Assembly: GCA_964016885.1 (NCBI GenBank) | Contig: OZ024742.1 | Span: forward strand, 92,814,001 to 92,878,000 | Source of the DNA: Eledone cirrhosa | Taxonomy: Eukaryota | Reading direction: 5' to 3' | DNA length: 64,000 bases | Shown here: in pieces, positions 5,283 to 64,000 of the stretch | Layout: each line of letters begins with the position of its first letter | How positions within the stretch are numbered: position 1 is the stretch's first letter | Notes under the pieces: model-generated | The model's input: the letters and a program-made list of their open reading frames with translations, nothing else | Told to the model about the DNA's origin: nothing | Database searches by the model: none | Made by a program: the position numbers and the translations under genes

Positions 5283-7089
5283 GTGTAAAGACTTTAATTT
5301 TTAATGTAATGTTGTCATAGTGTTGTTTTATATTTCTCAAGAATGTCTTGTTAATGTGGTTTTATGTGGTACAGGATATTAAGAGTTAATCTAGCTAGCT
5401 TACGTTGCTATCATGTTCAGGAAATGGAAAGTCAGAAAAATCATTTTAAAAGTAATTCAAATGATGGGATTTCTTTTAATAAAGATTGTTGTGTAATACT
5501 ATTTATATTGTGAGGGATTCTTAGGGTTTTAGGGTCAACATGACCAACTAAATACCTTCAATGTAGTGCCTCAGAATAGTCACAGGCAATTGAAATAAAT
5601 AATTGAATAAAAAAATGCATATGTACATTGATTTAGATGTAAACCAAACATATACTGGAAATTCACTTGCTAGGTATATTGAAGGACAGATAGAGCTTGG
5701 TTCTATTAACATCCTGTAATAATTTAGCAGAAAATATGTAAAAGCGGGTTATGTTTATAGTATCTTTACTACTGGACAAGTTCATAATTTTTATCATCAT
5801 CATTAAAATGCTACAAGGGTTGGGTGGACTGTTTCAGATCAAATCAGTACTCAAGTGAAGCTTTGATCTATCAGATGGGCTCAGAACCTGCATATCACTT
5901 ACTCTTTTATGCGTTCCAGCTAACAGGCCATGCTGGGCACCAACATTTACTGACATTCCCATGATCTAGTGAGTGCATTTTAATGTGGCACCAGCACTAT
6001 AATGTTATAAAAATTCTAATTTTCAATATGATGCAGTCCAAATGCTGCTTTATACTTTTCATGGTTTCATGTGATAGAGGGCGTCACAAATTACTCTATC
6101 TTGCTTATGTTGCTATCTAGTTCAGGAAATGGAAAGTCACAGAAAAATCATTTGAAAGGTTATTCAAATGATGGGATTTCATGTAACAGAGAATGTTGTT
6201 AAGCAATGCCATTGATACTATGGATTCTGCTTTATAGTCTATAATAATGGAATGAAGTAACCCATAAGTCTGAACCCTCTTGTCATCTGGATGTGGGTTG
6301 TGTGGGTGATAGATAGAGATTATAGGAAACAGCAGAAATGCATAGTGAGTGATAGCCTTAAAAGGGAAGTTATAGAGAAGTAAATGGTAAGTATATGAAA
6401 CAAAATTGCACACACACCACGCATAAATGCATCTAGCCAGAGTTAGATGATATACAATTATATATAAAACCAAAAACAAAACTACATATATATGCATATT
6501 TATTCATAGCATAGATATTTACACACAGATGATGATGATGATGATGATGAAGATGATGATGATGATGATGATGATGATGAGATGCAACACATATATATGA
6601 GCAAAAGAGCGGAAATGAGGGAGGAAAAGAGTTATAATGCTGTAAGGTATCATTTAGAGCTATCATCCTTTGTGTACAGTCAAATCTTTTACAAGATAAG
6701 ATATTCCTGCAAGGAATCTAGCTAGTTGTTCATAAAGAATGGAAATGATGGAATATGCCTTGGGTTCTTTGGATTTGAAAAGATCTCAAGAATAGTAGGA
6801 ATTAGGATATTTTGGTTCCTGGAGCTGTCTGTTATCTTGATAAATTTGTTTTATAACCCAACATTACTAAACAACAAAATTAAATGTTTTACATCATGGA
6901 AGAGTCATTTTGGCCATTGAAAAAAACAAAACAAAACAAAAAACATACAAAACTATTAATTTCACTTTATATTTATCATTTATTTCTTGGTGTTAAAATG
7001 TAGAACTATTTGCAATCTGGTTATTGATACAATTACACAGCGACCAGGTTGCAAACAATGTGAGAAAAATGTTGGCATAAAAACCCCAA

Positions 7090-8384: not shown

Positions 8385-8775
8385 TCATCATCATCATCAT
8401 CATGACCGTTTTACGTCCGTTCTTCCACGCTAGCATGGGTTAGACAGGTTGTCCTGTTGTGGGCAGTGTCCGGTCGGCTGACCTTGTCTTGCTCATATAG
8501 GAACTGATTCTGGCTTGATTTCTACAGCTGGATGCCCTTCCTAACACCAACCTCATTTACAGTGAGTGCTGGGTGCTTTTTTTACCGTGGAACCTCCACG
8601 ACCACTTTGCAGTGGAATGATATGGACCCCAGTCCTATCATCTCATTTCTACAGCTGAGTAAACTGGAGCAATTTGAAATAAAGTGTCTTGCTCAAGGAA
8701 ACAACACATCACCCGGTCTGAGAACTGAACTCACAACCTTTTGATTGCAAGCCCAATGCTTTAACCACTAAGCCA
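8385..8775 (-). mobile_element. Near full-length tRNA-head CORE-like SINE with RTE-type tail (family A)
   Basis: Reverse complement reads TGGCTTAGTGGTTAAAG (A box), GAGTTCAGTTC (B box), CCTTGAGCAAGACACTT..CTCAGCTGTAGAAATG (CORE-like), AAGGGCATCCAGCTGTAGAAA, GGACGTAAAA(TGA)n. Confidence 0.85.
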
Positions 8776-9431
8776 AATATAGAAATGGAAAAATAGGAGG
8801 GTGTTCTTATATTTGAGTATATAAGGTATTTGCTTCAGTTTCAACTTATTCTCCAACTAAATCACTTACCAGACAAATACAACTCCCAAATATGTTTTCA
8901 TACATGCAATTTACTCAGTAAATAGCATTGATCATAGTTACTATCACAGCTTTCTTATATACTTTCCAGTCTCTGGCTCACAGATGTATGTCTTCTCTCA
9001 CTGCTTTTCCTATCATTAATGCAATAGTCTCTGCTCCCCGGAGCTTGCTGAAATCAAGCTACCTTCACTCAAATACTTCCTGTCTCACTTGTCTCTCTTC
9101 CTCACATCGTTCATGTTGTGTCAATCTTCCCACCAGGCACTTATGCATTGTTCTTTCTGCCCAGAATCTTGGCCATCTATAACTCCCTCCCTACTCATGT
9201 ATTTCCTAAAGGAACAATTTAAACAGATTACCAACAGCATCGATTTCCCTAGTCTTAGAGGATCTGCAAAAACCATGGGTCTTGCCCCTTCCTCCAAACA
9301 AACCAAATAAAAAAAAGTAATGTCTTAGAATAATGGTTGTCTCTTGAGATAAATCTTCTCAGTTGTTTAGTTAATTAACTGTAATGCTATCTCATTCAAT
9401 ATGGATGTATTCAGAAGTGGGAACTTCATCT

Positions 9432-11138: not shown

Positions 11139-14100
11139 TTCCAAACTGGATACACTCAATCACCAAACCAGATACACACAATCACCAAACCAGATACACT
11201 CAATCACCAAACCAGATACACTCAATCACCAAACCAGATATACTGAATCACCAAACTAGATATACTCAATCACCAAACCAGATACACTCAATCACAAAAC
11301 TGGATACACACGATCACCAAACAAGATACACTCAATCACCAAACCAGATACACTCAATCACAAAACTTTATACACACAGTCACCAAACCAGATACACCAA
11401 TCACCAAACTGGATACAATCAATCACCAAACCAGATACACTCAATCACCAAACCAGATACACACAATCACCAAACCGGATACACTCAATCACCAAACTGG
11501 ATACACTCAATCACCAAACCAGATATACTCAGTCACCAAACCAGATACACTCAATCACCAAACCAGATACACTCAATCACCAAACTGGATACACTCAATC
11601 ACCAAACCAGATACACTCAATCACCAAACCAGATACACACAATCACCAAACCAGATACACTCAATCACCAAACCAGATACACTCAATCACCAAACTGGAT
11701 ACACTCAATCACTAAACCAGATACACTCAATCACCAAACCAGATACACACAATCACCAAACCAGATACACTCAATCACCAAACCAGATACACTCAATCAC
11801 CAAACCAGATACACTCAATCACCAAACCAGATACACTCAATCACCAAACTGGATACACTCAATCACCAAACCAGATACACTCAATCACCAAACTGGATAC
11901 ACTCAATCACCAAACCAGATACACTCAATCACCAAACCAGATACACTCAATCACCAAACCAGATACACTCAATCACCAAACTGGATACACTCAATCACCA
12001 AACCAGATACACTCAATCACCAAACCAGATACACTCAATCACCAAACCAGATACACACAATCACCTAATCAGATACACTCAATCACCAAACCAGATACAC
12101 TCAATCACCAAACTGGATACACTCAATCACCAAACCAGATACACTTAATCACCAAACCAGATACACTCAATCACCAAACAAGATACACTCAATCACCAAA
12201 CTGGATACACTCAATCACCAAACCAGATACACTCAATCACCAAACCAGATACACTCAATCACTAAACCAGATATACTCAGCCACCAAACCAGATACACTC
12301 AATCACCAAACCGGATACACTCAATCACCAAACTGGATACACTCAATCACCAAACCAGATACACTCAATCACCAAACTAGATACACTTAGTCACCAAACC
12401 AGATACACTCAATCACAAAACTGGATACACTCAATCACCAAACTGGATACACTCAATCACCAAACCAGATACACTCAATCACCAAACTGGATACACTCAA
12501 TCACCAAACTGGATACAATCAATCACCAAACCAGATACACTCAATCATCAAACCAGATACACACAATCACCAAACCGGATACACTCAATCACCAAACTGG
12601 ATACACTCAATCACCAAACTGGATACACTCAATCACCAAACCAGATATACTCAGTCACCAAACCAGATACACTCAATCACCAAACCAGATACACTCAATC
12701 ACCAAACTGGATACACTCAATCACCAAACCAGATACACTCAATCACCAAACCAGATACACTCAATCACCAAACCAGATACACTCAATCACCAAACCAGAT
12801 ACACTCAATCACCAAACTGGATACACTCAATCACCAAACCAGATACACTCAATCACCAAACGAGATATACTCAGTCACCAAACTAGATACACTCAATCAC
12901 CAAACCAGATACACTCAATCACCAAACTGGATACACTCAATCACTAAACCAGATACACTCAATCACCAAACCAGATACACACAATCACCTAACCAGATAC
13001 ACTCAATCGCCTAACCAGATACACTCAATCACCAAACTGGATACACTCAATCACCAAACCAGATACACTTAATCACCAAACCAGATACACTCAATCACCA
13101 TACAAGATACACTCAATCACCAAACTGGATACACTCAATCACCAAACTGAATACACTCAATCACCAAACCAGATACACTCAATCACCAAACCAGATATAC
13201 TCAGCCACCAAACCAGATACACTCAATCACCAAACCGGATACACTCAATCACCAAACTGGATACACTCAATCAACAAACCAGATACACTCAATCACCAAA
13301 CCAGATACACACAATCACCAAACCAGATACACTCAATCACCAAACCAGATACACTCAATTACCAAACTGGATACACTCAATCACCAAACCAGATACACTC
13401 AATCACCAAACCAGATACACACAATCACCAAACCAGATACACTCAATCACCAAACCAGATACACTCAATCACCAAACTGGATACACTCAATCACCAAACC
13501 AGATACACTCAATCACCAAACCAGATATACTCAGTCACCAAACTAGATACACTCAATCACCAAAGCAGATACACTCAATCACCAAACTGGATACACTCAA
13601 TCACTAAACCAGATACACTCAATCACCAAACCAGATACACTCAATCACCAAACCAGATACACTCAATCACCAAACCAGATAAACTCAATCACCAAACTGG
13701 ATACACTCAATCACCAAACCAGATACACTCAATCACCAAACCAGATATACTCAGTCACCAAACTAGATACACTCAATCACCAAACCAGATACACTCAATC
13801 ACCAAACTGGATACACTCAATCACTAAACCAGATAAACTCAATCACCAAACCAGATACACTCAATCACCAAACCAGATACACTCAATCACCAAACCAGAT
13901 ACACTCAATCACCAAACCAGATACACACGATCACCTAACCAGATACACTCAATCACCAAACCAGATACACTCAATCACCAAACTGGATACACTCAATCAC
14001 CAAAGCAGATACACACGATCACCTAACCAGATACACTCAATCACCAAACCAGATACACTCAATCACCAAACTGGATACACTCAATCACCAAACCAGATAT

Positions 14101-17100
14101 ACTCAGTCACCAAACTAGATACACTCAATCACCAAACCAGATACACTCAATCACCAAACTGGATACACTCAATCACTAAACCAGATACACTCAATCACCA
14201 AACCAGATACACACAATCACCAAACCAGATACACTCAATCACCAAACCAGATACACTCAATCACCAAACCAGATACACTCAATCACCAAACCAGATACAC
14301 TCAATCACCAAACTGGATACACTCAATCACCAAACCAGATACACTCAATCACCAAACTAGATACACTTAGTCACCAAACCAGATACACTCAATCACAAAA
14401 CTGGATACACACAATCACCAAACCAGATACACTCAATCACCAAACCAGATACACTCAATCACAAAACTGGATACACTCAATCACCAAACTGGATACAATC
14501 AATCACCAAACTGGATACAATCAATCACCAAACCAGATACACTCAATCACCAAACCAGATACACACAATCACCAAACCAGATACACTCAATCACCAAACC
14601 AGATACACTCAATCACCAAACCAGATACACTCAATCACCAAACCAGATACACTCAATCACCAAACTGGATACACTCAATCACCAAACTGGATACAATCAA
14701 TCACCAAACCAGATACACTCAATCATCAAACCAGATACACACAATCACCAAACCGGATACACTCAATCACCAAACTGGATACACTCAATCACCAAACTGG
14801 ATACACTCAATCACCAAACCAGATATACTCAGTCACCAAACCAGATACACTCAATCACCAAACCAGATACACTCAATCACCAAACTGGATACACTCAATC
14901 ACCAAACCAGATACACTCAATCACCAAACCAGATACACTCAATCACCAAACCAGATACACTCAATCACCAAACCAGATACACTCAATCACCAAACTGGAT
15001 ACACTCAATCACCAAACCAGATACACTCAATCACCAAACGAGATATACTCAGTCACCAAACTAGATACACTCAATCACCAAACCAGATACACTCAATCAC
15101 CAAACTGGATACACTCAATCACTAAACCAGATACACTCAATCACCAAACGAGATATACTCAGTCACCAAACTAGATACACTCAATCACCAAACCAGATAC
15201 ACTCAATCACCAAACTGGATACACTCAATCACTAAACCAGATACACTCAATAACCAAACCAGATACACACAATCACCTAACCAGATACACTCAATCGCCT
15301 AACCAGATACACTCAATCACCAAACTGGATACACTCAATCACCAAACCAGATACACTTAATCACCAAACCAGATACACTCAATCACCATACAAGATACAC
15401 TCAATCACCAAACTGGATACACTCAATCACCAAACTGAATACACTCAATCACCAAACCAGATACACTCAATCACCAAACCAGATATACTCAGCCACCAAA
15501 CCAGATACACTCAATCACCAAACCGGATACACTCAATCACCAAACTGGATACACTCAATCAACAAACCAGATACACTCAATCACCAAACCAGATACACAC
15601 AATCACCAAACCAGATACACTCAATCACCAAACCAGATACACTCAATCACCAAACTGGATACACTCAATCACCAAACCAGATACACTCAATCACCAAACC
15701 AGATACACACAATCACCAAACCAGATACACTCAATCACCAAACCAGATACACTCAATCACCAAACTGGATACACTCAATCACCAAACCAGATACACTCAA
15801 TCACCAAACCAGATATACTCAGTCACCAAACTAGATACACTCAATCACCAAAGCAGATACACTCAATCACCAAACTGGATACACTCAATCACTAAACCAG
15901 ATACACTCAATCACCAAACCAGATACACTCAATCACCAAACCAGATACACTCAATCACCAAACCAGATAAACTCAATCACCAAACTGGATACACTCAATC
16001 ACCAAACCAGATACACTCAATCACCAAACCAGATATACTCAGTTACCAAACTAGATACACTCAATCACCAAACCAGATACACTCAATCACCAAACTGGAT
16101 ACACTCAATCACTAAACCAGATAAACTCAATTACCAAACCAGATACACTCAATCACCAAACCAGATACACTCAATCACCAAACCAGATACACTCAATCAC
16201 CAAACCAGATACACACGATCACCTAACCAGATACACTCAATCACCAAACCAGATACACTCAATCACCAAACTGGATACACTCAATCACCAAAGCAGATAC
16301 ACTTAATCACCAAACCAGATACACTCAATCACCAAACAAGATACACTCAATCACCAAACAGATACACTCAATCACCAAACCAGATACACTCAATCACCAA
16401 ACCAGATAAACTTAATCACCAAACTGGATACACTCAATCACCAAACCAGATACACTCAATCACCAAACCAGATATACTCAGTCACCAAACTAGATACACT
16501 CAATCACCAAACCAGATACACTCAATCACCAAACTGGATACACTCAATCACTAAACCAGATACACTCAATCACCAAACCAGATACACTCAATCACCAAAC
16601 CAGATACACTCAATCACCAAACCAGATACATTCAATCACCAAACCAGATACACACAATCACCTAACCAGATACACTCAATCACCAAACCAGATACACTCA
16701 ATCACCAAACTAGATACACTCAATCACCAAACCAGATACACTCAATCACCAAACCAGATACACTCAACCACCAAACCAGATACACTCAATCACCAAACCA
16801 GATACACTCAATCACCAAACCAGATACACACAATCACCTAACCAGATACACTCAATCACCAAACCAGATACACTCAATCACCAAACCAGATACACTCAAT
16901 CACCAAACTAGATACACTCAATCACCAAACCAGATACACTCAATCACCAAACCAGATACACTCAGCCACCAAACCAGATACACTCAATCACTAAACCAGA
17001 TACACTCAATCACCAAACTGGATACACTCAATCACCAAATCAGATACACTTAATCACCAAACCAGATACACTCAATCACCAAACAAGATACACTCAATCA

Positions 17101-20100
17101 CCAAACTGGATACACTCAATCACCAAACAAGATACACTCAATCACCAAACCAGATACAATCAATCACCAAAACAGATATACTCAGCCACAAAACCAGATA
17201 CACTCAATCACCAAACCGGATACACTCAATCACCAAACAGGATACACTCAATCACCAAAGCAGATACACTTAATCACCAAACCAGATACACTCAATCACC
17301 AAACAAGATACACTCAATCACCAAACTGGATACACTCAATCACCAAACCAGATACACTCAATCACCAAACCAGATACAATCAATCACCAAACCAGATATA
17401 CTCAGTCACCAGACCAGATACACTCAATCACCAAACCGGATACACTCAATCACCAAACTGGATACACTCAATCACCAAACTAGATACACTTAGTCACCAA
17501 ACCAGATACACTCAATCACCAAACTGGATACACTCAATCACCAAACTGGATACACTCAATCACCAAACCAGATACACTCAATCACCAAACTGGATACACT
17601 CAATCACCAAACTGGATACAATCAATCACCAAACCAGATACACTCAATCATCAAACCAGATACACACAATCACCAAACCGGATACACTCAATCACCAAAC
17701 AGGATACACTCAATCACCAAACTGGATACACTCAATCACCAAACCAGATATACTCAGTCACCAAACCAGATACACTCAATCACCAAACCAGATACACTCA
17801 ATCACCAAACTGGATACACTCAATCACCAAACCAGATATACTCAATCACCAAACTAGATACACTCAATCACCAAACCAGATACACTCAATAACCAAACCA
17901 GATACACTTAGTCACCAAACCAGATACACTCAATCACAAAACTGGATACACACAATCACCAAACCAGATACACTCAATCACCAAACCGGATACACTCAAT
18001 CACCAAACCAGATACACTCAATCACAAAACTGTATACACACAGTAACCAAACCAGATACACTCAATCACCAAACTGGATACACTCAATCACCGAACCAGT
18101 TACACTCATTCACCAAACCAGATACACACAATCACCAAACCAGATACACTCAATCACCAAACCAGATACACTCAATCACCAAACTGGATACACTCAATCA
18201 CCAAACCAGATACAATCAATCACCAAACCAGATATACTCAATCACCAAACTAGATACACTCAATCACCAAACCAGATACACTCAATCACCAAACTGGATA
18301 CACTCAATCACTAAACCAGATACACTCAATCACCAAACCAGATACACTCAATCACCAAAACAGATACACTCAATCACCAAACCAGATAAACTCAATCACC
18401 AAACTGGATACACTCAATCACCAAACCAGATACACTCAATCACCAAACTGGATACACTCAATCACTAAACCAGATACACTCAATCACCAAACCAGATACA
18501 CTCAATCACCAAACCAGATACACTCAATCACCAAACCAGATACACTCAATCACCAAACCAGATACACTCAATCACCAAACCAGATACACACAATCACCTA
18601 ACCAGATACACACAATCACCAAACCAGATACACTCAATCACCAAACTGGATACACTCAATCACCAAAGCAGATACACTTAATCAGCAAACCAGATACCTT
18701 CATTCACCAAACAAGATACACTCAATCACCAAACTGGATACACTCAATCACCAAACCAGATACACTCAATCAGCAAACCAGATACAATCAATCACCAAAC
18801 CAGATACACTCAATCACCAAACCAGATACACTCAATCACCAAACTGGATACACTCAATCACCAAACCAGATACACTCAATCACCAAACCAGATACAATCA
18901 ATCACCAAACCAGATATACTCAGCCACCAAACCAGATACACTCAATCACCAAACCGGATACACTCAATCACCAAACTGGATACACTCAATCACCAAACCA
19001 GATACACTCAATCACCAAACCAGATACACTTACTCACCAAACCAGATACACTCAATCACAAAACTGGATACACACAATCACCAAACCAGATACACTCAAT
19101 CACCAAACCAGATATACTCAATCACAAAACTGGATACACTCAATCACCAAACCAGATACACTCAATCACCAAACTGGATACACTCAATCACCAAACCAAA
19201 TACACTCAATCACCAAACCAGATACACACAATCACCTAACCAGATACACACAATCACCTAACCAGATACACTCAATCACCAAACCAGATACACTCAATCA
19301 CCAAACCAGATACACACAATCACCTAACCAGATACACTCAATCACCAAACCAGATACACACAATCACCAAACCAGATACACACAATCACCTAACCAGATA
19401 CACTCAATCACCAAACCAGATACACTCAATCACCAAACTGGATACACTCAATCACCAAACCAGATACACTTAATCACCAAACCAGATACACTCAATCACC
19501 AAACAAGATACACTCAATCACCAAACTGGATACGATCAATCACCAAACCAGATACACTCAATCACCAAACTGGATACACTCAATCACCAAACCAGATACA
19601 CTCAATCACCAAACCAGATATACTCAGTCACCAAACTAGATACACTCAATCACCAAACCAGATACACTCAATCACCAAACTGGATACACTCAATCACTAA
19701 ACCAGATACACTCAATCACCAAACCAGATACACTCAATCACCAAACTGGATACACTCAATCACCAAACCAGATACACTCAATCACCAAACCAGATATACT
19801 CAGTCACCAAACTAGATACACTCAATCACCAAACCAGATACACTCAATCACCAAACTGGATACACTCAATCACTAAACCAAATACACTCAATCACGAAAC
19901 TGGATACACTCAATCACCAAACCAGATACACACAATCACCTAACCAGATACACTCAATCACCAAACTGGATACACTCAATCACCAAACCAGATACACTCA
20001 ATCACCAAACCAGATACACTTAATCACCAAACCAGATACACTCAATCACCAAACAAGATACACTCAATCACCAAACTGGATACACTCAATCACCAAACCA

Positions 20101-22860
20101 GATACACTCAATCACCAAACCAGATACACTCAATCACCAGACCGGATACACACAATCACCAAAGCAGATACACTCAATCACCAAACCAGATACACTCAAT
20201 CACCAAACCAGATACACTCAATCACCAAACCAGATATACTCAGTCACCAAACCAGACACACTCAGTCACCAAACCAGATACACTCAGTCACCAAACCAGA
20301 TACAGTCAATCACCAAACCAGATACACTCAATCACCAAACCAGATACACTCAATCACCAAACCAGATACACTCAATCACCAAACTGGATACACTCAATCA
20401 CCAAACTGGATACACTCAATCACCAAACCGGATACACTCAATCAACAAACTGGATACACTCAGTCACAAAACTGAATACACTCAATCACCAAACCAGATA
20501 CACTCAATCACCAAACCAGATATACTCAGTCACCAAACCAGATACACTCAATCACCAAACCAGATACACTCGATCACCAAACTGGATACACTTAGTCGCA
20601 AAACTGGATACATTCAATCACCAAACCAGATACACTCAATCACCAAACTGGATACACTCAGTCACCAAACCAGATACACTCAATCACCAAACTGGATACA
20701 CTCAATCACCAAATCAGATACAGTCAATCAACAAACCAGTTACACTCAGTCACTAAACCGGATACACTCGATCACCAAACCAGATACACTCAATCACCAA
20801 ACCAGATACACTCAATCACCAAACCAGATATACTCAATCACCAAAGCAGATACACACAATCACCAAACCAGATATACTCAATCACCAAACCAGATACACT
20901 CAGTCACCAAACCAGATACACTCAATCACCAAACCAGATACACTCAGTCACCAAACCAGATACACTCAATCACCAAACCAGATACACTCAATCACCAAAC
21001 CAGATATACCCAATCACCAAACCAGATACACACAATCACCAAACCAGATATACTCAATCACCAAACCAGATACACTCAGTCACCAAACCAGATACACTCA
21101 ATCACCAAACCAGATACACTCAGTCACCAAACCAGATACACTCAATCACCAAACCAGATAACTCAATCACCAAATCAGATATACTCAATCACCAAACCAG
21201 ATATACCCAATCACCAAACCAGATACACACAATCACCAAACCAGATATACTCAATCACCAAACCAGATACACTCAGTCACCAAACCAGATACACTCAATC
21301 ACCAAACCAGATACACTCAGTCACCAAACCAGATACACTCAATCACCAAACCAGATACACTCAATCAGCAAACCAGATACACACAATCACCAAACCAGAT
21401 ACACTCAATCACCAAACCAGATACACTCAATCACCAAACCAGATATACTCAATCACCAAACCAGATATACTCAATTACCAAACCAGATACACTCAATCAC
21501 CAAACCAGATACACTCAATCACCAAACCAGATATACTCAATCACTAAACCAGATACACACAATCACCAAACCAGATATACTCAATCACCAAACCAGATAC
21601 ACTCAGTCACCAAACCAGATACACTCAATCACCAAACCAGATACACTCAATCACCAAACCAGATATATTCAATCACCAAACCAGATACACACAATCACCA
21701 AACCGGATATACTCAATCACCAAACCAGATACACTCAATCACCAAACCAGATACACCCAATCACCAAACCAGATATACTCAATCACCAAACCAGATACAC
21801 ACAATCACCAAACCAGATATACTCAATCACCAAACCAGATACACTCAATCACCAAACCAGATACACTCAATCACCAAACTGGATACACTCAATCACCAAA
21901 CCAGATACACTCAATCACCAAACCAGATATACTCAGTCACCAAACTAGATACACTCAATCACCAAACCAGATACACTCAATCACCAAACTGGATACACTC
22001 AATCACTAAACCAGATACACTCAATCACCAAAGCAGATACACACAATCACCAAACCAGATATACTCAATCACCAAACCAGATACACTCAATCACCAAACC
22101 AGATACACTCAATCACCAAACTGGATACACTCAATCACCAAACCAGATACACTCAATCACCAAACCAGATATACTCCGTCACCAAACTAGATACACTCAA
22201 TCACCAAACCAGATACACTCAATCACCAAACTGGATACACTCAATCACTAAACCAGATACACTCAATCACCTAACCAGATACACTCAATCACCAAACCAG
22301 ATACACTCAATCACCAAACTGGATACACTCAATCACCAAACCAGATACACTCAATCACCAAACCAGATATACTCAGCCACCAAACCAGATACACTCAATC
22401 ACCAAACCGGATACACTCAATCACCAAACTGGATACACTCAATCACCAAACTGGATACACTCAATCACCAAACTGGATACACTCAATCACCAAACTGGAT
22501 ACACTCAATCACCAAACTGGATACACTCAATCACCAAACCAGATATACTCAATCACCAAACCAGATACACTCAATCACCAAACCAGATACACTCAATCAC
22601 CAAACCAGATACACTCAATCACCAAACCAGATACACTCAATCACCAAACCAGATATACTCAGCCACCAAACCAGATACACTCAATCACCAAACCAGATAC
22701 ACACAATCACCAAACCAGATACACTCAACCACCAAACCAGATATACTCAATCACCAAACCAGATACACTCAATCACCAAACCAGATACACACAATCACCA
22801 AACCAGATTCATACAGCCACTGAACTGGATATGCATAATCACTGAACCATAGATGCACAG
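11139..22860 (+). repeat. 22-bp satellite array (ACTCAATCACCAAACCAGATAC), roughly 530 copies
   Basis: Continuous 22-bp periodicity with point variants and degenerate units at both borders. Confidence 0.98.
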
Positions 22861-27097: not shown

Positions 27098-30000
27098 CCT
27101 CCCACTATCACACATGTCCACCAAACACCACACCATCCCTCCCACTATCACACATGTCCACCAAAACACCACTCCATCCCTCCCACTATCACACATATCC
27201 ACCAAACACCACTCCCTCCCTCCCTCCCTCCCACTATCACACCTGTCCACCAAACACCACTCCATCCCTCCCACTATCACACATGTCCACCAAACACCAC
27301 TCCCTCACTCCCACTATCACACATGTCCACCAAACACCATTCCCTCCCTCCCTCCCACTATCACACATGTCCACCAAACACCATTCCCTCCCTCCCTCAC
27401 ACTATCCCACATGTCCACCAAACACCACTCCATCCCTCACACTATCACACATGTCCACCAAACACCACTCCATCCCTCCCACTATCACACATGTCCACCA
27501 AACACCATTCCCTCCCTCCCTCCCACTATCACACATATCCACCAAACACCACTACCTCCCTCCCTCCCACTATCACACATGTCCACCAAAACCACTCCCT
27601 CCCTCCCACTATCACCCATGTCCACCAAACACCACTCCCTCCCTCCCACTATCACACATGTCCACCAAACACCACTCCATCCCTCCCACTATCACACATG
27701 TCCACCAAACACCACTCCCTCCCTCCCACTATCACACATGTCCACCAAATTCCACTCCATCCCTCCCACTATCACACATGTCCACCAAACACAACTCCCT
27801 CCCTCCCACTATCACACATGACCACCAAACACCACTCCATCCCTCCCACTATCACACATGTCTACCAAACACCACTCCAACCCTCCCACTATCACACATG
27901 TCCACCAAACACCACTTCATCCCTCCCACTATCACACATGTCCACCAAACAACACCCCCTCCCTCCCACTATCACACATGTCCACCAAACACCACTCCAT
28001 CCTTCACACTATCACACATGTCCACCAAACACCACTCCATCCCTCCCACTATCACACATGTCTACCAAACACCACTCCATCTTTCACACTATCACACATG
28101 TCCACCAAACACCACTCCATCCCTCCCACTATCACACATGTCTACCAAACACCACTCCATCCCTCCCACTATCACACATGTCTACCAAACACCACTCCAT
28201 CCCTCCCACTATCACACATGTCCACCAAACACCACTCCATCCTTCACACTATCACACATGTCCACCAAACACCACCCCATCCTTCACACTATCACACATG
28301 TCCCCCAAAACACCACTCCATCCTTCACACTATCACACATCTCCACCAAAACACCACTCTATCCCTCCCACTATCACACATGTTCACCAAACACCACTCC
28401 ATCCCTCCCACTATCACACATGTCCACCAAAACACCACTCCATCCTTCACACTATCACACATGTCCACCAAACACCACTCCACCCCTCCCACTGTCACAC
28501 ATGTCCACCAAACACCACTCCCTCCCTCACACTATCACACATGTCCACCAAACACCACTCCATCCCTCACACTATCACACATGTCCACCAAACACCACTC
28601 CCTCCCTCCCACTATCACACATGTCTACCAAACACCACTCCATCCCTCCCACTATCATACATGTTCACCAAACACCACTCCCTCCCTCCCACTATCACAC
28701 ATGTCCACCACAACATCACTCCATCCTTCACACTATCACACATGTCCACCAAACACCACTCCATCCCTCACACTATCACACATGTCCACCAAAACACCAC
28801 TCCATCCCTCCCACTATCATACATGTTAACCAAACACCACTCCCTCCCTCCCACTATCCCACATGTCCACCAAACACCACTCCATCCCTCACACTATCAC
28901 ACATGTCCACCAAACACCACTTCATCCCTCACACTATCACACATGTCCACCAAACACCACTCCATCCCTCACACTATCACACATGTCCACCAAAACAACA
29001 CTCCATCCTTCACACTATCACACATGTCCACCAAACACCACTCCATCCCTCACACTATCACACATGTCCACCAAAACACCACTCCATCCTTCACACTATC
29101 ACACATGTCCACCAAACACCACTCCATCCCTCACACTATCACACATGTCCACCAAACACCACTCCATCCCTCACACTATCATACATGTCCACCAAACACC
29201 ACTCCATCCTTCACACTATCACACATGTCCACCAAAACACCACTCCATCCTTCACACTATCACACATGTCCACCAAACACCACTCCATCCCTCCCACTAT
29301 CATACATGTTCACCAAACACCACTCCCTCCCTCCCACTATCACACATGTCCACCACAACATCACTCCATCCTTCACACTATCACACATGTCCACCAAACA
29401 CCACTCCATCCCTCACACTATCACACATGTCCACCAAAACACCACTCCATCCCTCCCACTATCATACATGTTCACCAAACACCACTCACTCCCTCCCACT
29501 ATCCCACATGTCCACCAAACACTACTCCATCCCTCACACTATCACACATGTCCACCAAACACCACTTCATCCCTCACACTATCACACATGTCCACCAAAC
29601 ACCACTCCATCCCTCACACTATCACACATGTCCACCAAAACAACACTCCATCCTTCACACTATCACACATGTCCACCAAACACCACTCCATCCCTCACAC
29701 TATCATACATGTCCACCAAAACACCACTCCATCCTTCACACTATCCCACATGTCCACCAAACACCACTCCATCCCTCACACTATCACACATGTCCACCAA
29801 ACACCACTCCATCCCTCACACTATCACACATGTCCACCAAACACCACTCCATCCCTCACACTATCACACATATCCACCAAACACCACGCCCTCCCTCCCT
29901 CCCACTATCACACATGTCCACCAAACACCACTCCCTCCCTCCCACTATCACACATGTCCACCAAACACCACTCCCTCCCTCACACTATCACACATGTCCA

Positions 30001-33000
30001 CCAAACACCACTCCATCCCTCACACTATCACACATGTCCACCAAACACCACTCCCTCCCTCCCACTATCACACATGTCTACCAAACACCACTCCATCCCT
30101 CCCACTATCACACATGTCCACGAAACACCACTTCATCCCTCCCACTATCACACATGTCCACCAAACAACACTCCCTCCCTCCCACTATCACACATGTCTA
30201 TCAAACACCACTCTATCCCTCCCACTATCACACATGTCTACCAAACACCACTCCATCCCTTCCACTATCACACATGTCCACCAAACACCACTCCATCCTT
30301 CACACTATCACACATGTCCACCAAACACCACTCCATCCTTCACACTATCACACATGTCTACCAAAACACCACTCCATCCCTCACACTATCACACATGTCC
30401 ACCAAACACCACTCCATCCCTCCCACTATCACACATGTCCACCAAACACCACTCCATCCCTCCCACTATCACACATGTTCACCAAACACCACTCCATCCC
30501 TCCCACTAACACACATGTCCACCAAAACACCACTCCATCCTTCACACTATCACACATCTCCACCAAAACACCACTCCATCCCTCCCACTATCACACATGT
30601 TCACCAAACACCACTCCCTCCCTCCCACTATCACACATGTCCACCACAACATCACTCCCTCCCTCCCACTATCACACATGTCCACCAAACACCACTCCAC
30701 CCCTCCCACTATCACACATGTCCACCAAACAGCACTCCATCCCTCCCACTATCACACATGTCCACCAAACACCACTCCATCCTTCACACTATCACACATG
30801 TCCACCAAACACCACTCCATCCTTCACACTATCACACATGTCCACCAAACACCACTCTATCCTTCACACTATCACACTTGTCCACCAAAACACCACTCCA
30901 TCCTTCACACTATCACACATGTCCACCAAACACCACTCCATCCCTCACACTATCACACATGTCCACCAAACACCACTCCATCCCTCACACTATCACACAT
31001 GTCTACCAAACACCACTCCATCCCTCCCACTATCACACATGTCCACCAAACACCACTCCATCCCTCACACTATCACACATGTCCACCAAAACACCACACC
31101 ATCCTTCACACTATCACACATGTCCACCAAACACCACTCCATCCCTCACACTATCACACATGTCCACCAAACACCACTCCCTCCCTCCCACTATCACACA
31201 TGTCTACCAAACACCACTCCATCCCTCCCACTATCACACATGTCCACGAAACACCACTTCATCCCTCCCACTATCACACATGTCCACCAAACAACACTCC
31301 CTCCCTCCCACTATCACACATGTCTATCAAACACCACTCTATCCCTCCCACTATCACACATGTCTACCAAACACCACTCCATCCCTCCCACTATCACACA
31401 TGTCCACCAAACACCACTCCATCCTTCACACTATCACACATGTCCACCAAACACCACTCCATCCTTCACACTATCACACATGTCTACCAAAACACCACTC
31501 CATCCCTCACACTATCACACATGTCCACCAAACACCACTCCATCCCTCCCACTATCACACATGTCCACCAAACACCACTCCATCCCTCCCACTATCACAC
31601 ATGTTCACCAAACACCACCCATCCCTCCCACTAACACACATGTCCACCAAAACACCACTCCATCCTTCACACTATCACACATCTCCACCAAAACACCACT
31701 CCATCCCTCCCACTATCACACATGTTCACCAAACACCACTCCCTCCCTCCCACTATCACACATGTCCACCACAACATCACTCCCTCCCTCCCACTATCAC
31801 ACATGTCCACCAAACACCACTCCACCCCTCCCACTATCACACATGTCCACCAAACAGCACTCCATCCCTCCCACTATCACACATGTCCACCAAACACCAC
31901 TCCATCCTTCACACTATGACACATGTCCACCAAACACCACTCCATCCCTCCCACTAACACACATGTCCACCAAAACACCACTCCATCCTTCACACTATCA
32001 CACATCTCCACCAAAACACCACTCCATCCCTCCCACTATCACACATGTTCACCAAACACCACTCCCTCCCTCCCACTATCACACATGTCCACCACAACAT
32101 CACTCCCTCCCTCCCACTATCACACATGTCCACCAAACACCACTCCACCCCTCCCACTATCACACATGTCCACCAAACAGCACTCCATCCCTCCCACTAT
32201 CACACATGTCCACCAAACACCACTCCATCCTTCACACTATCACACATGTCCACCAAACACCACTCCATCCTTCACACTATCACACATGTCCACCAAACAC
32301 CACTCTATCCTTCACACTATCACACTTGTCCACCAAAACACCACTCCATCCTTCACACTATCACACATGTCCACCAAACACCACTCCATCCCTCACACTA
32401 TCACACATGTCCACCAAACACCACTCCATCCCTCACACTATCACACATGTCTACCAAACACCACTCCATCCCTCCCACTATCACACATGTCCACCAAACA
32501 CCACTCCATCCCTCACACTATCACACATGTCCACCAAAACACCACACCATCCTTCACACTATCACACATGTCCACCAAACACCACTCCATCCCTCACACT
32601 ATCACACATGTCCACCAAACACCACTCCCTCCCTCCCACTATCACACATGTCTACCAAACACCACTCCATCCCTCCCACTATCACACATGTCCACGAAAC
32701 ACCACTTCATCCCTCCCACTATCACACATGTCCACCAAACAACACTCCCTCCCTCCCACTATCACACATGTCTATCAAACACCACTCTATCCCTCCCACT
32801 ATCACACATGTCTACCAAACACCACTCCATCCCTCCCACTATCACACATGTCCACCAAACACCACTCCATCCTTCACACTATCACACATGTCCACCAAAC
32901 ACCACTCCATCCTTCACACTATCACACATGTCTACCAAAACACCACTCCATCCCTCACACTATCACACATGTCCACCAAACACCACTCCATCCCTCCCAC

Positions 33001-35990
33001 TATCACACATGTCCACCAAACACCACTCCATCCCTCCCACTATCACACATGTTCACCAAACACCACCCATCCCTCCCACTAACACACATGTCCACCAAAA
33101 CACCACTCCATCCTTCACACTATCACACATCTCCACCAAAACACCACTCCATCCCTCCCACTATCACACATGTTCACCAAACACCACTCCCTCCCTCCCA
33201 CTATCACACATGTCCACCACAACATCACTCCCTCCCTCCCACTATCACACATGTCCACCAAACACCACTCCACCCCTCCCACTATCACACATGTCCACCA
33301 AACAGCACTCCATCCCTCCCACTATCACACATGTCCACCAAACACCACTCCATCCTTCACACTATGACACATGTCCACCAAACACCACTCCATCCTTCAC
33401 ACTATCACACATGTCCACCAAACACCACTCTATCCTTCACACTATCACACTTGTCCACCAAAACACCACTCCATCCTTCACACTATCACACATGTCCACC
33501 AAACACCACTCCATCCCTCACACTATCACACATGTCCACCAAACACCACTCCATCCCTCACACTATCACACATGTCTACCAAACACCACTCCATCCCTCC
33601 CACTATCACACATGTCCACCAAACACCACTCCATCCCTCCCACTATCACACATGTCCACCAAACACCACTCCATCCCTCACACTATCACACATGTCCACC
33701 AAACACCACTACATCCCTCACACTATCACACATGTCTACCAAACACCACTCCATCCCTCACACTATCACACATGTCTACCAAATACAACTCCATCCCTCC
33801 CACTATCACACATGTCCACCAAACACCACTCCATCCCTCCCACTATCACACATGTCCACCAAACACCACTCCATCCCTCACACTATCACACATGTCTACC
33901 AAAACACCACTCCATCCTTCACACTATCACACATGTCCACCAAACACCACTCCATCCCTCACACTATCACACATGTCCACCAAACACCACTCCATCCCTC
34001 ACACTATCACACATGTCTACCAAACACCACTCCATCCCTCCCACTATCACACATGTCCACCAAACACCACTCCATCCCTCCCACTATCACACATGTCCAC
34101 CAAACACCACTCCATCCCTCACACTATCACACATGTCCACCAAACACCACTCCATCCCTCACACTATCACACATGTCTACCAAACACCACTCCATCCCTC
34201 CCACTATCACACATGTTCACCAAACACCACTCCATCCCTCACACTATCACACATGTCCACCAAAACACCACTCCATCCTTCACACTATCACACATGTCCA
34301 CCACAACACCACTCTATCCTTCACACTATCACAGATGTCCACCAAAACACCACTCCATCCTTCACACTATCACACATGTCCACCACAACACCACTCTATC
34401 CTTCACACTATCACAGATGTCCACCAAAACACCACTCCATCCCTCCCACTATCACACATGTTCACCAACCACCACTCCATCCCTCACACTATCACACATG
34501 TCTACCAAAACACCACTCCATCCCTCCCACTATCACACATGTTCACCAAACACCACTCCATCCCTCACACTATCACACATGTCCACCAAAACACCACTCC
34601 ATCCTTCACACTATCACACATGTCCACCAAAACACCACTCCATCCTTCACACTATCACACATGTTCACCAAAACACCACTCCATCCTTCACACTATCACA
34701 CATGTCCACCAAAATACCACTCCATCCTTCACACTATCACACATGTCCACCAAAACACCACTCCATCCTTCACACTATCACACATGTCTACCAAAACACC
34801 ACTCCATCCTTCACACTATCACACATGTCCACCAAAACACCACTCCATCCTTCACACTATCACACATGTCCACCAAAACACCACTCCATCCTTCACACTA
34901 TCACACATGTCCACCAAAACACCACTCCATCCTTCACACTATCACACATGTCCACCAAAACACCACTCCATCCTTCACACTATCACACATGTCTACCAAA
35001 ACACCACTCCATCCTTCACACTATCACACATGTCCACCAAACACTACTCCACCCCCCCCCCCCACTATCACACATGTCCACCAAACACCACTCCATCCTT
35101 CACACTATCACACATCTTCACCAAACACCACTCCATCCCTCACACTATCACACATGTCCACCAAAACACCACTCCATCCTTCACACTATCACACATGTCC
35201 ACCAAAACACCACTCCATCCCTCACACTATCACACATGTCCACCAAAACACCACTCCATCCTTCACACTATCACACATGTCCACCAAAACACCACTCCAT
35301 CCTTCACACTATCACACATGTCCACCAAACACTACTCCATCCCCCCCCCCCACTATCACACATGTCCACCAAACACCACTCCATCCTTCACACTATCACA
35401 CATCTTCACCAAACACCACTCCATCCCTCACACTATCACACATGTCCACCAAAACACCACTCCATCCTTCACACTATCACACATGTCCACCAAAACACCA
35501 CTCCATCCCTCACACTATCACACATGTCCACCAAAACACCACTCCATCCTTCACACTATCACACATGTCCACCAAACACCACTCCATCCCTCACACTATA
35601 ATACATGTCCACCAAAACACCACTCCATCCTTCACACTATCACACATGTCCACCAAAACACCACTCCATCCTTCACACTATCACACATGTCCACCAAAAC
35701 ACCACTCCATCCTTCACACTATCACACATGTCCACGAAACACCACTCCATCCCTCACACTATAATACATGTCCACCAAAACACCACTCCATCCTTCACAC
35801 TATCACACATGTCCACCAAAACACCACTCCATCCTTCACACTATTACACATGTCCACCAAAACACCACTCCATCCTTCAGACTATCACACATGTCCACCA
35901 AAACACCACTCCATCCTTCACACTATCACACTTGTCCACCAAACATCACTCCATCCTTCACACTATCACACATGTCCACCAAACTAAAAT
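27098..35990 (+). repeat. 40/41-bp satellite array (CACTATCACACATGTCCACCAAACACCACTCCATCCCTCC), roughly 220 copies
   Basis: Continuous periodicity. It produces the 2836, 1544 and 1354 aa artefactual ORFs. Confidence 0.98.
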
Positions 35991-58874: not shown

Positions 58875-58941
58875 TATTTTATCTGATGAGGACGTACTGT
58901 TAAAGTTAGCTCAGTACCTCTGAAATATGTATAATAGAATA
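58875..58941 (+). ncRNA. Type I hammerhead ribozyme (Penelope-type) in a ~250-bp segment flanked by (TA)n
   Basis: TATTTTAT-CTGATGA-GGACGTACTG/CAGTACCTCT-GAAA-TATGTA-TA-ATAGAATA gives an 8-bp stem I with one G-U, a 10-bp stem II with one mismatch and a short stem III. Confidence 0.75.
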
Positions 58942-59079
58942 TACTTGATCACAAGAAGTTCTATTTTTGTTAATATTTTGAATTAATATTAATAACTCCG
59001 GAAAACCAATTTTGTTGAGTGCTTCCAATCTATTGTAAAACTGATTCTTTGATTTATTCATTGAACCTTGTTTAACCTT

Positions 59080-60245: not shown

Positions 60246-60247
<2 letters not shown>

Positions 60248-62688
60248 CAGCGGGACAGGCAGATAGTGTCTAATACCAAGGCATACCCTGGGGAAGAATG
60301 TACCCCACAGCATAGGTTAGTTGTTAGTGATATCTCAGTAAGCAAGAGATGGAATGAGACATATAGGAAGGTGTGGAGAAGAAAGGTCTGGAAGCTAAAA
60401 GACCTTTCACTAAAATACAAATTTAGGAAAGCCCTTCAAGATGTATATGACGAAAAAGAAGACGATTTAGAGACGTTTGACATAGATAATAACTGGAAGT
60501 TCTTACGTGACAACTTGCTGCAGGCTACTGATGAAACCTGTGGCTGGAGCAGAGCTCCAACCAGACAGAGAGTGACCTGGTGGTGGAACAGCACAGTAGA
60601 TAAGGCTATTAGAGACAAAAGACTAGCATGGAAGGCTTGGAAAAAGGGTGGGAGTAGGGAAGAATATACAGCCACTAAGAGAGAAGCTAGACGTCAGGTG
60701 TACTTAGCACGCAGGGAGGCAGAGAGTAGGAGATTTGCCAATGTTCTGCGACAGGAAGATCAGAGGCGTGCGGTGTTCCACATTGCAAGGCAGTGTGTCA
60801 ATGCAAATCAGGATGTTGTTGGAGATAAATGTGTCCGGGATGATGCCGGTGTACTTAGTGTCACGAATGACCAGAAAAAGGAGGCCTGGAAATGTCATTA
60901 TGAGAGACTGATGAATGTGGAGAACGAATGGGAGAGAGAGAAATTACCCTTGGTAGATCCGACAGAGCGACCAGCTATTGAGATTGACGAATATAGGGTC
61001 CAAGAGGCGATTAGGGAAATGAAAAATGGTAAGGCGGCCGGACCATCGGGAATAGTTGCTGAGATGCTGAAGGCATCAGGGGACGTAGGCACTAAACTGG
61101 TTGCACGCATCATCAATCAGGCTATATATGGTGGTGTCATACCCAAAGACTGGTGCAGCAGTATTCTCATAAATTGCTACAAAGGTAAAGGGGATGCTTT
61201 GGAGAGGAGCAATTATAGGGGTATAAAACTGATAGATCAGGTTATGAAAGTGGCAGAAAGGATTTTAGCACAACTAATTAGAGAAAGGGTCAAACTAGAT
61301 GAGATGCAGTTTGGTTTTGTGCCTGGGAAGAGTACAACAGATGCCCTCTTCTTGGTGAGACAAATGCAAGAGAGGTTCTTAGAGAAGAATAAGCCACTAT
61401 ACTTAGCCTTTGTTGACCTAGAGAAGGCCTTTGATAGGGTACCCCGATCTGTCATCTGGTGGTCCCTAAGGAAGCTAGGTGTTGAGGAATGGCTTGTGAG
61501 GACAGTGCAAACTTTGTACAGAGGTACTCTCAGTAAAGTCAGGGTAGGAATGGAGTTTAGTGAGGAATTCCAGATACAAGTAGGAGTACATCAGGGTTCA
61601 GTCCTCAGCCCGCTCTTGTTCATTATAGTCCTCCAAGCCATAACAGAGGAGTTTAAGACTGGCTGTCCATGGGAACTTCTCTATGCTGACGATCTGGCTC
61701 TTATAGCAGAATCAGTAGAGGAGCTAGAGAATAAATTCCGGCTATGGAAACAGCAGTTGGAAGCAAGAGGACTGAGAGTAAATCTAGCTAAGACAAAAGT
61801 GTTGATGAGTAGAAAAGAGGACAAAACCCTGATTCCGTTAGGGAAATGGCCATGTTCGATATGCAGAAAAGGAACTGGCATAAATTCTATAAAATGCACA
61901 CAATGCAGGTCCTGGGTACACAAGAGATGTAGCGGGATAGCAGGCAAACTAACAGGTAGGGAGAAATATGTATGCAGTAGATGTACAGGGAAATTAGACA
62001 GTAGAAGTCGCACTGATAGACACATTTTTCAAATGCGAGAGGGCGCTATAGAAGTGGTGGATAGCTTCCGGTACCTAGGAGATCAGATTAGCATGGGAGG
62101 AGGGTGTTCCGAGGCCATAGTATCTAGAATAAGGACGGGTTGGAAGAAGTTTAGGGAGCTGCTTCCTCTGTTGACGAAGAAGGGTTTCTCCCTGCGTACG
62201 AAAGGCCGGTTGTATGATGCCTGTGTGAGGAGTGCGATGCTGCATGGTAGTGAGACATGGGCAGCAACCGCAGAGGATATGCGACGGCTGGTGAGAAATG
62301 AGGCAAGCATGCTCCGTTGGATGTGCAGTGTAAATGTGCGTGAACGACCCAGCATAAGTGTGTTGAGAGAGAAACTGTGTCTGAGAGGGATAGAATGTAG
62401 TGTACGGGAGAGGAGACTGAGGTGGTATGGACATGTGATGCGCATGGAGGATGACCGATGGGTGAAGAAGTGCCAGGAAATGCCAGTTGCGGGAAGACGT
62501 GGTAGAGGTAGACCACGAAAAACATGGGCGGAGGTGGTGAGAACAGACCTCAGATCATTGAAGCTCACGGTGGAGATGACGAGGGACCGTGACGAGTGGA
62601 GAGTTGCTGTGCTGAATAAGACCCGTCCCACCCTTGCAAGCAGGGAAAAGCGGACGTAAAATGATGATGATGATGATGATGATGATGA
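60246..62688 (+). mobile_element. 5'-truncated RTE LINE with an uninterrupted ~800-aa ORF (end of APE, RT, PHD-type finger)
   Basis: TPQHRLVV, KAAGPSG, NYRGIKL, FVDLEKAFDRV, GVHQGSVLSP, LYADDL, FRYLG, RLRWYGHV, GRPRKTW. (TA)n on the 5' side and a (GAT)n tail. Confidence 0.95.
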
Positions 62689-62862
62689 TACATATATATA
62701 TATACACACATACAGGTACACATACATATATGCACGTGTCAGTTTAGCGGACGCTTATTATAACGCCGCTTTGTTCGTTTGTAAACAAACTGAACAGCCT
62801 GAATTTATGCCGTACGGTGTTAAGGCAACCACGTCACCTTTTTGTTCAACACTGACACAGGA

Positions 62863-62905
62863 ACGATGTACTAGTTTCAAGCTTGTTAGCTATCATCAGC
62901 ACCGT
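62863..62905 (-). ncRNA. Minimal type I hammerhead ribozyme, copy 1 (extended stem I spans 62844-62930)
   Basis: Minus strand ACGGTG-CTGATGA-TAGCT-AACA-AGCTT-GAAA-CTAG-TA-CATCGT. Confidence 0.88.
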
Positions 62906-63141
62906 ATACCCTTCTGCCAGATAGTTGAACGTTCGAAAGTATATACTTTCCTTATGAAAATTAACGGCTGAGCAGCCTAATTTGCATATCGAGTGAGTTA
63001 AGTCGGTCAGGCATACCGAAAACGATAAGTTGAAATAAAATGAAAACGAAATTTCATTTCTCACTCTTAGTACGGCACTTACTTAAATGTAAGTATGTAT
63101 GTATACGTACATACATATATGTATACAGACGTACAGTAGCA

Positions 63142-63209
<68 letters not shown>

Positions 63210-63359
63210 CAGGTACACATACATATATGCACGTATCAGTTTAGCGGACGCCTATTATAACGCCGCTTTGTTCGTTTGTAAACAAACTGAACATCCTGAA
63301 TTTATGCCGTACGGTGTTAAGGCAACCACGTCACCTTTTTGTTCAACACTGACACAGGA

Positions 63360-63402
63360 ACGATGTACTAGTTTCAAGCTTGTTAGCTATCATCAGCACC
63401 GT
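63360..63402 (-). ncRNA. Minimal type I hammerhead ribozyme, copy 2
   Basis: Core identical to copy 1. Confidence 0.85.
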
Positions 63403-63599
63403 ATACCCGTATATACGTCTGTATACCCGTATATACGTCTGTATACCCGTATATACGTCTGTATACATATATGTATGTACGTATACATACATACTTACAT
63501 TTAAGTAAGTGCCGTACTAAGAGTGAGAAATGAAATTTCGTTTTCATTTTATTTCAACTTATCGTTTTCGGTATGCCTGACCGACTTAACTCACTCGAT

Positions 63600-63607
63600 A
63601 TGCAAAT
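63600..63607 (+). promoter_or_regulatory. Octamer ATGCAAAT upstream of the hammerhead (also 62980-62987 on the minus strand)
   Basis: Perfect octamer about 80 bp 5' of the ribozyme core in both longer units. Function unproven. Confidence 0.35.
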
Positions 63608-63681
63608 TAGGCTGCTCAGCCGTTAATTTTCATAAGGAAAGTATATACTTTCGAACGTTCAACTATCTGGCAGAAGGGTAT

Positions 63682-63724
63682 ACGGTGTTGATGATAGCTA
63701 AGAAGCTTGAAACTAGTACATCGT
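63682..63724 (+). ncRNA. Hammerhead ribozyme, copy 3 (C3U variant; extended stem I spans 63657-63743)
   Basis: ACGGTG-TTGATGA-TAGCT-AAGA-AGCTT-GAAA-CTAG-TA-CATCGT. Confidence 0.75.
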
Positions 63725-63874
63725 TCCTGTGTCAGTGTTGAACAAAAAGGTGACGTGGTTGCCTTAACACCATACGGCATAAATTCAGGCTGTTCAGTTT
63801 GTTTACAAACGAACAAAGCGGCGTTATAATAAGCGTCCGCTAAACTGATACGTGCATATATGTATGTGTACCTG

Positions 63875-63921
<47 letters not shown>

Positions 63922-63956
63922 GTACATACATATATGTATACAGACGTACAATAGCA

Positions 63957-64000
<44 letters not shown>

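Follow-up and report, generated by a model that had tools for sequence, protein, structure and literature searches.

A hammerhead-bearing repeat family of Eledone cirrhosa with the features of a non-LTR retrozyme and an insertion anatomy resembling that of Penelope-like elements

Small non-coding repeats with hammerhead ribozymes are described in animals as non-LTR retrozymes (Cervera and de la Pena 2020, PMC7229834; review PMC7761336). Animal retrozymes make abundant circular RNAs, and both the circles and their ligation by RtcB have been demonstrated in other animals (PMC7229834); the literature consulted here does not demonstrate the route by which circles return to the genome. A connection to Penelope-like elements (PLEs) was proposed (PMC7229834, PMC7761336 and the preprint of Li, Clavereau and Pollet 2026, 10.64898/2026.07.22.740005), the helper role of PLEs resting so far on co-occurrence and, in Xenopus, on sequence likeness; according to the accessible text of the review, retrozyme repeats bear no motif pointing to their helper (PMC7761336). 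Hammerheads with a weak palindromic stem III are reported to cleave in multimers and not in the monomer circle (PMC4209133). Regarding PLEs themselves, PAc, the only one studied in vitro, initiates reverse transcription (RT) internally at two sites; its hammerhead is dispensable and uncleaved RNA is the main template (PMC11167929). Genomic PLE insertions carry a recognizable signature consisting of a partial tandem, an inverted 5' copy and a tail on one end (PMC8557442, PMC3846280).

The window considered here is a stretch of 64,000 nucleotides (C3:92,814,001–92,878,000) from the 3.0 Gb genome of Eledone cirrhosa, the end of which had been predicted to hold a ~497-bp tandem repeat with a hammerhead ribozyme. 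The cut sites predicted in copies A and B are indeed 497 nt apart, but there is no array of full units: what is found is a single insertion with two arms. Taking as the unit the reverse complement of 62700–63150 (451 nt, with the core at 252 and the cut after 282), the minus-strand arm comprises the full copy A (62700–63150, unit 1–451 descending from 63150 to 62700) and the 5'-truncated copy B (63197–63408, unit 240–451), and the plus-strand arm comprises the back-to-back copy C (63454–63887, unit 18–451). A tail corresponding to unit 1–126 (126 nt) lies on the plus strand just outside the window, at about 64012–64137 in window numbering, and ends in TA. The minus arm is tail-free and its outer (TA/CA) end (62688–62699) abuts the (GAT)n tail of a neighbouring LINE. 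A hairpin followed by TTAT, at unit 87–126, is read through in this locus (63025–63064, minus strand); in other copies it is a fixed insertion end, and we infer that it is an RT start site. The (TA)n spacer between the units (63145–63209), which forms the tip of a long hairpin made by the two ends of the unit, would be a second one. The 5' ends of B and C, which have a GTATAC palindrome in common, meet at an inversion junction (63401–63466) with 3.3 copies of a 20-bp word, presumably a product of template slippage. Further on, a fold-back piece of 41 nt (63920–63960, minus strand), which repeats about 40 nt from the beginning of the tail, sits between two TA tracts, the second of which (63961–64000) continues past the window end; this piece and the tail have one private base change in common. 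As originally noted, the copies are nearly identical (97–99%) and the unit codes for no protein, its reading frames being short or TA-derived. The locus is nevertheless an unlikely source of the RNA that it had been proposed to release, because a transcript reading through both arms would fold into a long duplex, and because of the mutation in copy C.

The neighbouring LINE (60246–62689, plus strand), which we take to be RTE-like, is 5'-truncated, encodes RVT_1 and PHD domains within a single open frame, is bordered by TA tracts, and has no end in common with the element. Elsewhere in the window, strand-skewed minisatellites occupy 11141–22808 and 27098–35984 (22 bp × 530 and 40 bp × 220), and a tRNA-like match at 8717–8776 on the minus strand (29.3 bits, just at the gathering score) probably represents a SINE head.

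The type I hammerhead motif is present as it had been described, on the minus strand in copies A and B (GAAACTAGTA at 62869–62878 and 63366–63375, respectively) and on the plus strand in copy C (63709–63718). In hammerhead position numbers (C3, U4, N7 etc.), A and B contain CUGANGA, GAAA and UH with stems I–III in type I order, whereas C departs at C3. The core is intact in A (62861–62907) and in B (63358–63404), with predicted cuts at 62869/62868 and 63366/63365, and the distal arm of stem I is absent from B. In copy C, whose hammerhead spans 63680–63726 with AAGA as loop II, a T replaces C3 at 63688; this ribozyme is probably inactive for that reason, and the cut forecast at 63716–63718 is unlikely to occur. 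The extended stem I (62844–62930 in copy A, minus strand) belongs to the predicted fold with z-scores of −2.7 and −2.9 (1 and 3 of 200 shuffles as good), which agrees with the earlier view that it is unlikely to occur by chance. The whole 451-nt unit folds with z −8.5, none of 100 shuffles being as stable, partly because its AT-rich ends pair; a U.U mismatch is found at the base of stem II. At the gathering score, which is a library threshold outside the definition of the ribozyme class, an Rfam search found no hammerhead in the locus. The Hammerhead_1 model proposed for this check is not listed, and HH9 gave matches below its threshold of 52 bits only (23.4 bits for copy B, 17.6 for copy A, none for copy C). 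Rfam microRNA matches were rejected as TA-repeat noise. The window also contains, at 58875–58945, an isolated hammerhead-like motif (CTGATGA, long stem II, GAAA, TATG, TA) with an AT-rich stem I and a fold that is not significant (z −1.3); a similar motif occurs at L038:7435.

Scanning the genome on both strands with an exact 40-nt word from the core yielded 10,122 copies (control: 0), and matches to the unit are spread over many chromosomes. The first 100 core matches listed fall into about 50 loci across 69.6 Mb of C1, which suggests that the family comprises thousands of loci. Two sister subfamilies are homologous to the unit over the full length, the mean column identity of the three being 72%: subfamily 2 has a unit of about 422 bp (8,405 matches of its hairpin word, tails counted too) and subfamily 3 one of 465–468 bp (5,217 core matches). 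The family is dispersed, multicopy and found alongside PLEs, with a unit of a few hundred bp, GC below 50%, no LTR and no ORF. An array of about 100 units on C4 (C4:212,912,000–212,961,000, L031–L036) has higher-order repeats and 95–99% identity to the unit; it is heterogeneous, includes several core-mutated units, is unlike the dispersed insertions in this and looks as if grown at the DNA level. Subfamily 2 forms arrays of alternating A and B units at L174–L177 (C1:19,314,000–19,317,500), stem I of B being weakened, and alternating units recur, at a spacing of 842 bp, at C1:49,584,000–49,588,000. The alternation was considered as proof of dimer circles and rejected, given that L142 has singletons only and that the first unit of L176 differs from the later ones; likewise, a stretch of subfamily 3 at L036 taken for a pseudo-LTR (pLTR) was found to be a tandem family. 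Contigs from four sequencing runs are uninformative on expression (three cover part of the unit, one none); those under two organism labels include the hammerhead, with variants of subfamily-2 type. We also observed another tandem family, of ~310 bp and unrelated to this one, whose hammerhead has CGCG as stem III (L048:8550–9700; L031:5880–6520); it has inverted arms and two alternative ends lying in (TA)n, and appears as a second retrozyme-like lineage.

Conservation of the core was read from genome-wide counts because the C1 sample had been chosen by exact core match. Single changes number 23 at U4 against 747 at the free N7, and 69 at C3 against 537 at the loop II C, in counts that cover four positions and in which the tolerated variants come from few subfamilies and are not independent events. 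The mutant rate at U4 (0.23%) equals the per-copy decay implied by divergence within insertions, so that these mutants match decay after insertion. As for the 69 C3 mutants, the change is common to four adjacent pairs at monomer spacing and to one opposite-arm pair, from which it follows that dead monomers are sometimes multiplied. Across 10 variant rows from the three subfamilies the core is invariant, 6 of 13 stem pairs have changed on both sides (0 of 500 shuffles), stem I position 6–42 shows four pair types, and pairing of the stems reaches 91.5% compared with 17–44% for slid controls; these rows were hand-picked, their relatedness inflates the result, and most of the stem II signal comes from one row of subfamily 3. 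Preferential conservation of the core, anticipated in the original prediction, is borne out by its invariance over the subfamilies and the rarity of U4 and C3 mutants, and on these sequence counts the ribozyme core is under purifying selection.

In order to describe the insertions we took 49 loci in order along C1 and kept 50 clusters from 48 loci; the identity cut-off dropped L139 and a second cluster at L124, both of which fit the pattern. There are 28 clean back-to-back clusters, 21 single-armed ones and 1 with an older neighbour. In 23 of the 28 two-armed clusters, unit 126 is the end of one arm and (TA)n that of its partner, with the tail on a single arm, so that the combination of a partial tandem, an inverted 5'-truncated copy and a one-sided tail is the rule. 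Among the remaining five, three end at TA on both sides and two have one tail and another kind of end, one cluster of each sort being cut by the edge of the locus. Two-tailed clusters are absent from the 28 of the C1 sample, and one likely two-tail insertion was seen among the first 100 listed ends of the junction variant. Single arms end at unit 126 in 13 of 21 cases. The insertions sit in (TA)n and ends at unit 126 continue into TA; for the junction variant of the window, 433 copies stop there and pass into TA, and 569 read through. In all three subfamilies the hairpin stands directly before the end at unit 126, with compensated pairs in subfamily 3. The inversion junctions mostly show overlaps of 0–3 nt or lie at palindromes. 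Because the flanks of the C1 clusters are (TA)n, a target-site duplication is unreadable. A third TA-like arm end, a little upstream of the hairpin (about unit 60–85), occurs at L202:210, L036:5920, L006 and L050; arms ending there raise the possibility that RT start sites may be picked through short pairing with the TA target.

The same sample informs on the template. The cleavage site is crossed by 67 of 79 arms, by 25 of them at least twice, and 39 are longer than one unit; at least two consecutive complete motifs are therefore present in 25 of 79 arms, as in copies A and B of the window. All 79 5' starts lie inside the unit, and one of them lies within 5 nt of the cleavage site, about 2 being expected at random. 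No deletion was found at unit 279–286 in 119 units, and the junction length is unchanged in 111 of 117 (5 not assessable; 1 with a deletion 7 nt downstream). The arms crossing the site, the rarity of ends at it and the lack of indel scars indicate a template that is continuous across the cleavage site, that is, a ligated circle or an uncut multimer, both of which yield identical genomic sequence; a cleaved linear monomer copied with template jumps is rejected on the same three observations. Units diverge by 0.45% within an arm (127 pairs) and by 0.52% between opposite arms (82 pairs), compared with 3.41% between loci (6,447 pairs from 116 units in 48 loci), with L147 contributing over half of the within-locus pairs. 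Opposite-strand pairs diverge by less than 1% in 12 of 18 loci and by 2.3–3.4% in 4 of 18, and some loci are mosaics. At L202, which belongs to subfamily 3, all 18 of 18 monomers of 468 bp on both arms are identical and differ by 3.6% from another copy of the subfamily; every long array with two arms keeps a constant period of its own. Opposite arms cannot be homogenised by tandem duplication. Gene conversion or assembly smoothing could act in this way, and the unequal ends and unique flanks favour real insertions; one template per insertion is the best reading of these sequences. The circle is preferred over the multimer because the core is under selection and the units are homogeneous, selection for cleavage together with scar-free read-through being most simply satisfied by a circle.

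The genome contains 10,597 GIY-YIG candidates, of which 150 were scored, and 50 PLE loci or regions were looked at (30 GIY-YIG loci and 20 long-frame PLE regions in the partner search). The autonomous family P1 has RVT_1 and GIY-YIG domains, a CxxxxCxxC linker like that known from Neptune and Nematis, and ORFs that reach about 98% likeness between its closest copies. One short end and one long end, one per arm, are present in 7 of 7 opposite-strand pairs of P1, and family P2 follows the same rule in its single pair. P1 bears a hammerhead with a palindromic ACCGGT stem III (L181:930–960 and 5910–5940, minus strand; also L049, L112, L182, L186 and L038) in which position 3 is U and position 8 is A, presumably a compensated core pair; the U3.A8 core variant also occurs in a further PLE family (L075, L121). 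The bases before the short end of P1 bear a weak likeness to those preceding unit 126 (1, 45 and 86 of 500 shuffles for the three subfamilies, in 21 comparisons), and the P1 version of this end does not form the hairpin. BLAST of the unit against PLE ends gave no similarity in 51 PLE loci, nested copies of subfamily 2 aside, and none of the 50 C1 clusters continues into an ORF, though a low-copy parent may exist. In the loci examined the unit is accordingly not joined to a Penelope ORF, and the alternative once offered for the repeat, stacked Penelope pLTRs, is left unsupported. A search for the hairpin pattern with altered upstream bases returned 119 matches, one pair of which, 4.3 kb apart, was examined; it turned out to be a duplicated block of old sister copies and no pLTR-ORF-pLTR arrangement.

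We consider it likely, on the evidence of genomic sequence, that the family is a non-LTR retrozyme, its monomer being ligated into a circle that a Penelope-like protein reverse-transcribes, cleavage and circle being predicted; a self-processing, non-autonomous family probably moved by Penelope RT, as had been suggested, is thereby favoured by the genome-wide evidence. Multi-unit arms would be transcribed; no promoter was found, inspection by eye for polymerase III boxes giving none that is convincing, and internal T runs are present. Adjacent hammerheads would then pair by means of their palindromic ACUAGU and cleave after GUA, which would set free a monomer of about 460–510 nt. The motif and its conservation are observed here; cleavage and the need for a dimer are expected by analogy with the hammerheads of PMC4209133. 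Ligation would close the monomer into a circle, which a lone hammerhead with weak stem III could not reopen, as the systems of PMC7229834 and PMC4209133 would lead one to expect. The GIY-YIG endonuclease of a PLE would nick both strands of a (TA)n target and RT would start internally, at unit 126 behind the hairpin for one strand and in the (TA)n spacer for the other; the positions of the ends are observed, the enzymology is borrowed from PMC11167929. By circling the template through the cleavage site, RT would produce from one to more than 10 identical units per arm, and the two cDNAs would join head to head through 0–3 nt overlaps or palindromes, an anatomy that the genome displays directly. 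Some arrays may grow later by DNA-level duplication, as exemplified by the C4 array and L176. More tentatively, and with somewhat less than even confidence, the loci can be seen as a fossil record of rolling-circle retrotransposition, in which a PLE would prime the two target strands at two different internal sites of one ribozyme-made circle and deposit, in one event, two opposed arms with up to 20 or more identical monomers; at least three subfamilies (with marker counts of about 10,000, several thousand and 5,000) and the unrelated 310-bp family would compete for PLE proteins, and P1, young and with its U3.A8 hammerhead, would be a candidate driver.

Other templates and other helpers have to be weighed against the circular monomer. 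That an uncleaved linear multimer serves as template, the hammerhead being kept for another step (5' trimming, stability or folding) and circles being uninvolved, is rather unlikely in our view, but it has arguments on its side: insertion in vitro was not impaired when the hammerhead was mutated, and the principal substrate was RNA that had not been processed (PMC11167929), the lowest-energy monomer fold is predicted to trap the core, with GCUG paired to UAGU, a dimer would by rough estimate gain little (−59.4 vs −58.8 kcal/mol), and there are mosaic insertions in addition to the five pairs that share a C3 change. Active hammerheads would, however, destroy such templates, yet the core is kept over three subfamilies; moreover, arms of identical units numbering 7 and 13 or more call for a long uncut transcript of a uniform parent, whereas most loci hold 1–4 units and the 100-unit C4 array is heterogeneous with core mutants. 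It is very unlikely that the units are pLTRs shed by 5' truncation of an autonomous PLE outside the sample. Their head-to-tail order with no ORF, the 79 5' starts within the unit and the outcome of the search of PLE loci all speak against this, and the PLE frames near copies at L049, L111 and L112 belong to P1 and have their own, different pLTR, separated from the copies by (TA)n; on the other hand, hammerheads of this sort are borne by PLE pLTRs (PMC4209133), there is a resemblance between Xenopus retrozymes and pLTRs (preprint 10.64898/2026.07.22.740005), and PLE frames do stand near several copies in a genome where 150 of the 10,597 candidates were scored. An ancient origin from a pLTR is possible and would leave the present status of the family unchanged.

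Spread at the DNA level, by unequal exchange or extrachromosomal DNA circles with the hammerhead as a relic, is suggested by the C4 array with its higher-order repeats and by the alternating units of L174–L177 with their different first unit, and DNA circles could also yield identical units. Such a satellite would not be expected to have polar fixed ends (126 and (TA)n), scattered 5' ends, one-sided tails and selection at ribozyme positions, so that this origin is disfavoured for the dispersed copies and highly improbable as a general account. We give the least credence to mobilisation by a LINE such as the neighbouring one in place of a PLE: LINEs are named as possible helpers in PMC7229834, and one with an 833-codon open stretch touches the window copy, but there is no common 3' end, the LINE ending in (GAT)n, no 3' end falls at the cleavage site, and the rule of two ends and one tail fits the PLEs of this genome and the published signature (PMC8557442, PMC3846280).

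Comparing the circular-monomer retrozyme favoured here with the described systems, it appears that every feature testable by sequence fits a non-LTR retrozyme. Retrozymes and this family have in common non-coding tandem units of GC below 50% that each bear a single type I hammerhead, a stem III that is palindromic and weak, copy numbers in the thousands, a strongly self-paired monomer, no LTR (retrozymes also lack PBS and PPT) and co-occurrence with PLEs; a U.U at the base of stem II has likewise been described in an axolotl family. The kind of element is already known, although it had been considered possibly undescribed. The family differs in its unit of about 460–510 bp with an internal (TA)n spacer and in its insertion into (TA)n with no visible target duplication, and also in its fixed ends, head-to-head arms and one-sided tail, for which the accessible literature on retrozymes, mostly non-subscription papers, contains no description, nor does it describe this family. 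Expression and circles have been shown for the retrozymes of coral, mussel and axolotl, whereas the present family is known from sequence alone; 21 of 57 Xenopus families match a pLTR and for this family no match was found. Its young and numerous insertions let the mechanism be read in terms of start sites, a one-tail rule, scar-free passage, identical units and selection, and yield a concrete in vitro test of the circular-template model and of the role of the PLE hammerhead. With PLE insertions the family shares an AT-rich target, two alternative 3' ends, a tail on a single arm, head-to-head inversion, microhomology or a palindrome at the junction and a hammerhead upstream of the ends; it differs in having no ORF, a tail of (TA)n plus 126 nt compared with 30–40 bp, and arms of up to more than 10 identical units. 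MRC1 and similar non-autonomous elements of Chlamys are likewise described as non-coding parasites of PLEs with head-to-tail multicopy insertions (PMC8557442), but they are without canonical hammerheads and usually have 3' sequence in common with an autonomous family; here the hammerhead is conserved and the search gave no clear common end. What is unusual in the family of Eledone cirrhosa is the legibility of the evidence on its insertion mechanism.
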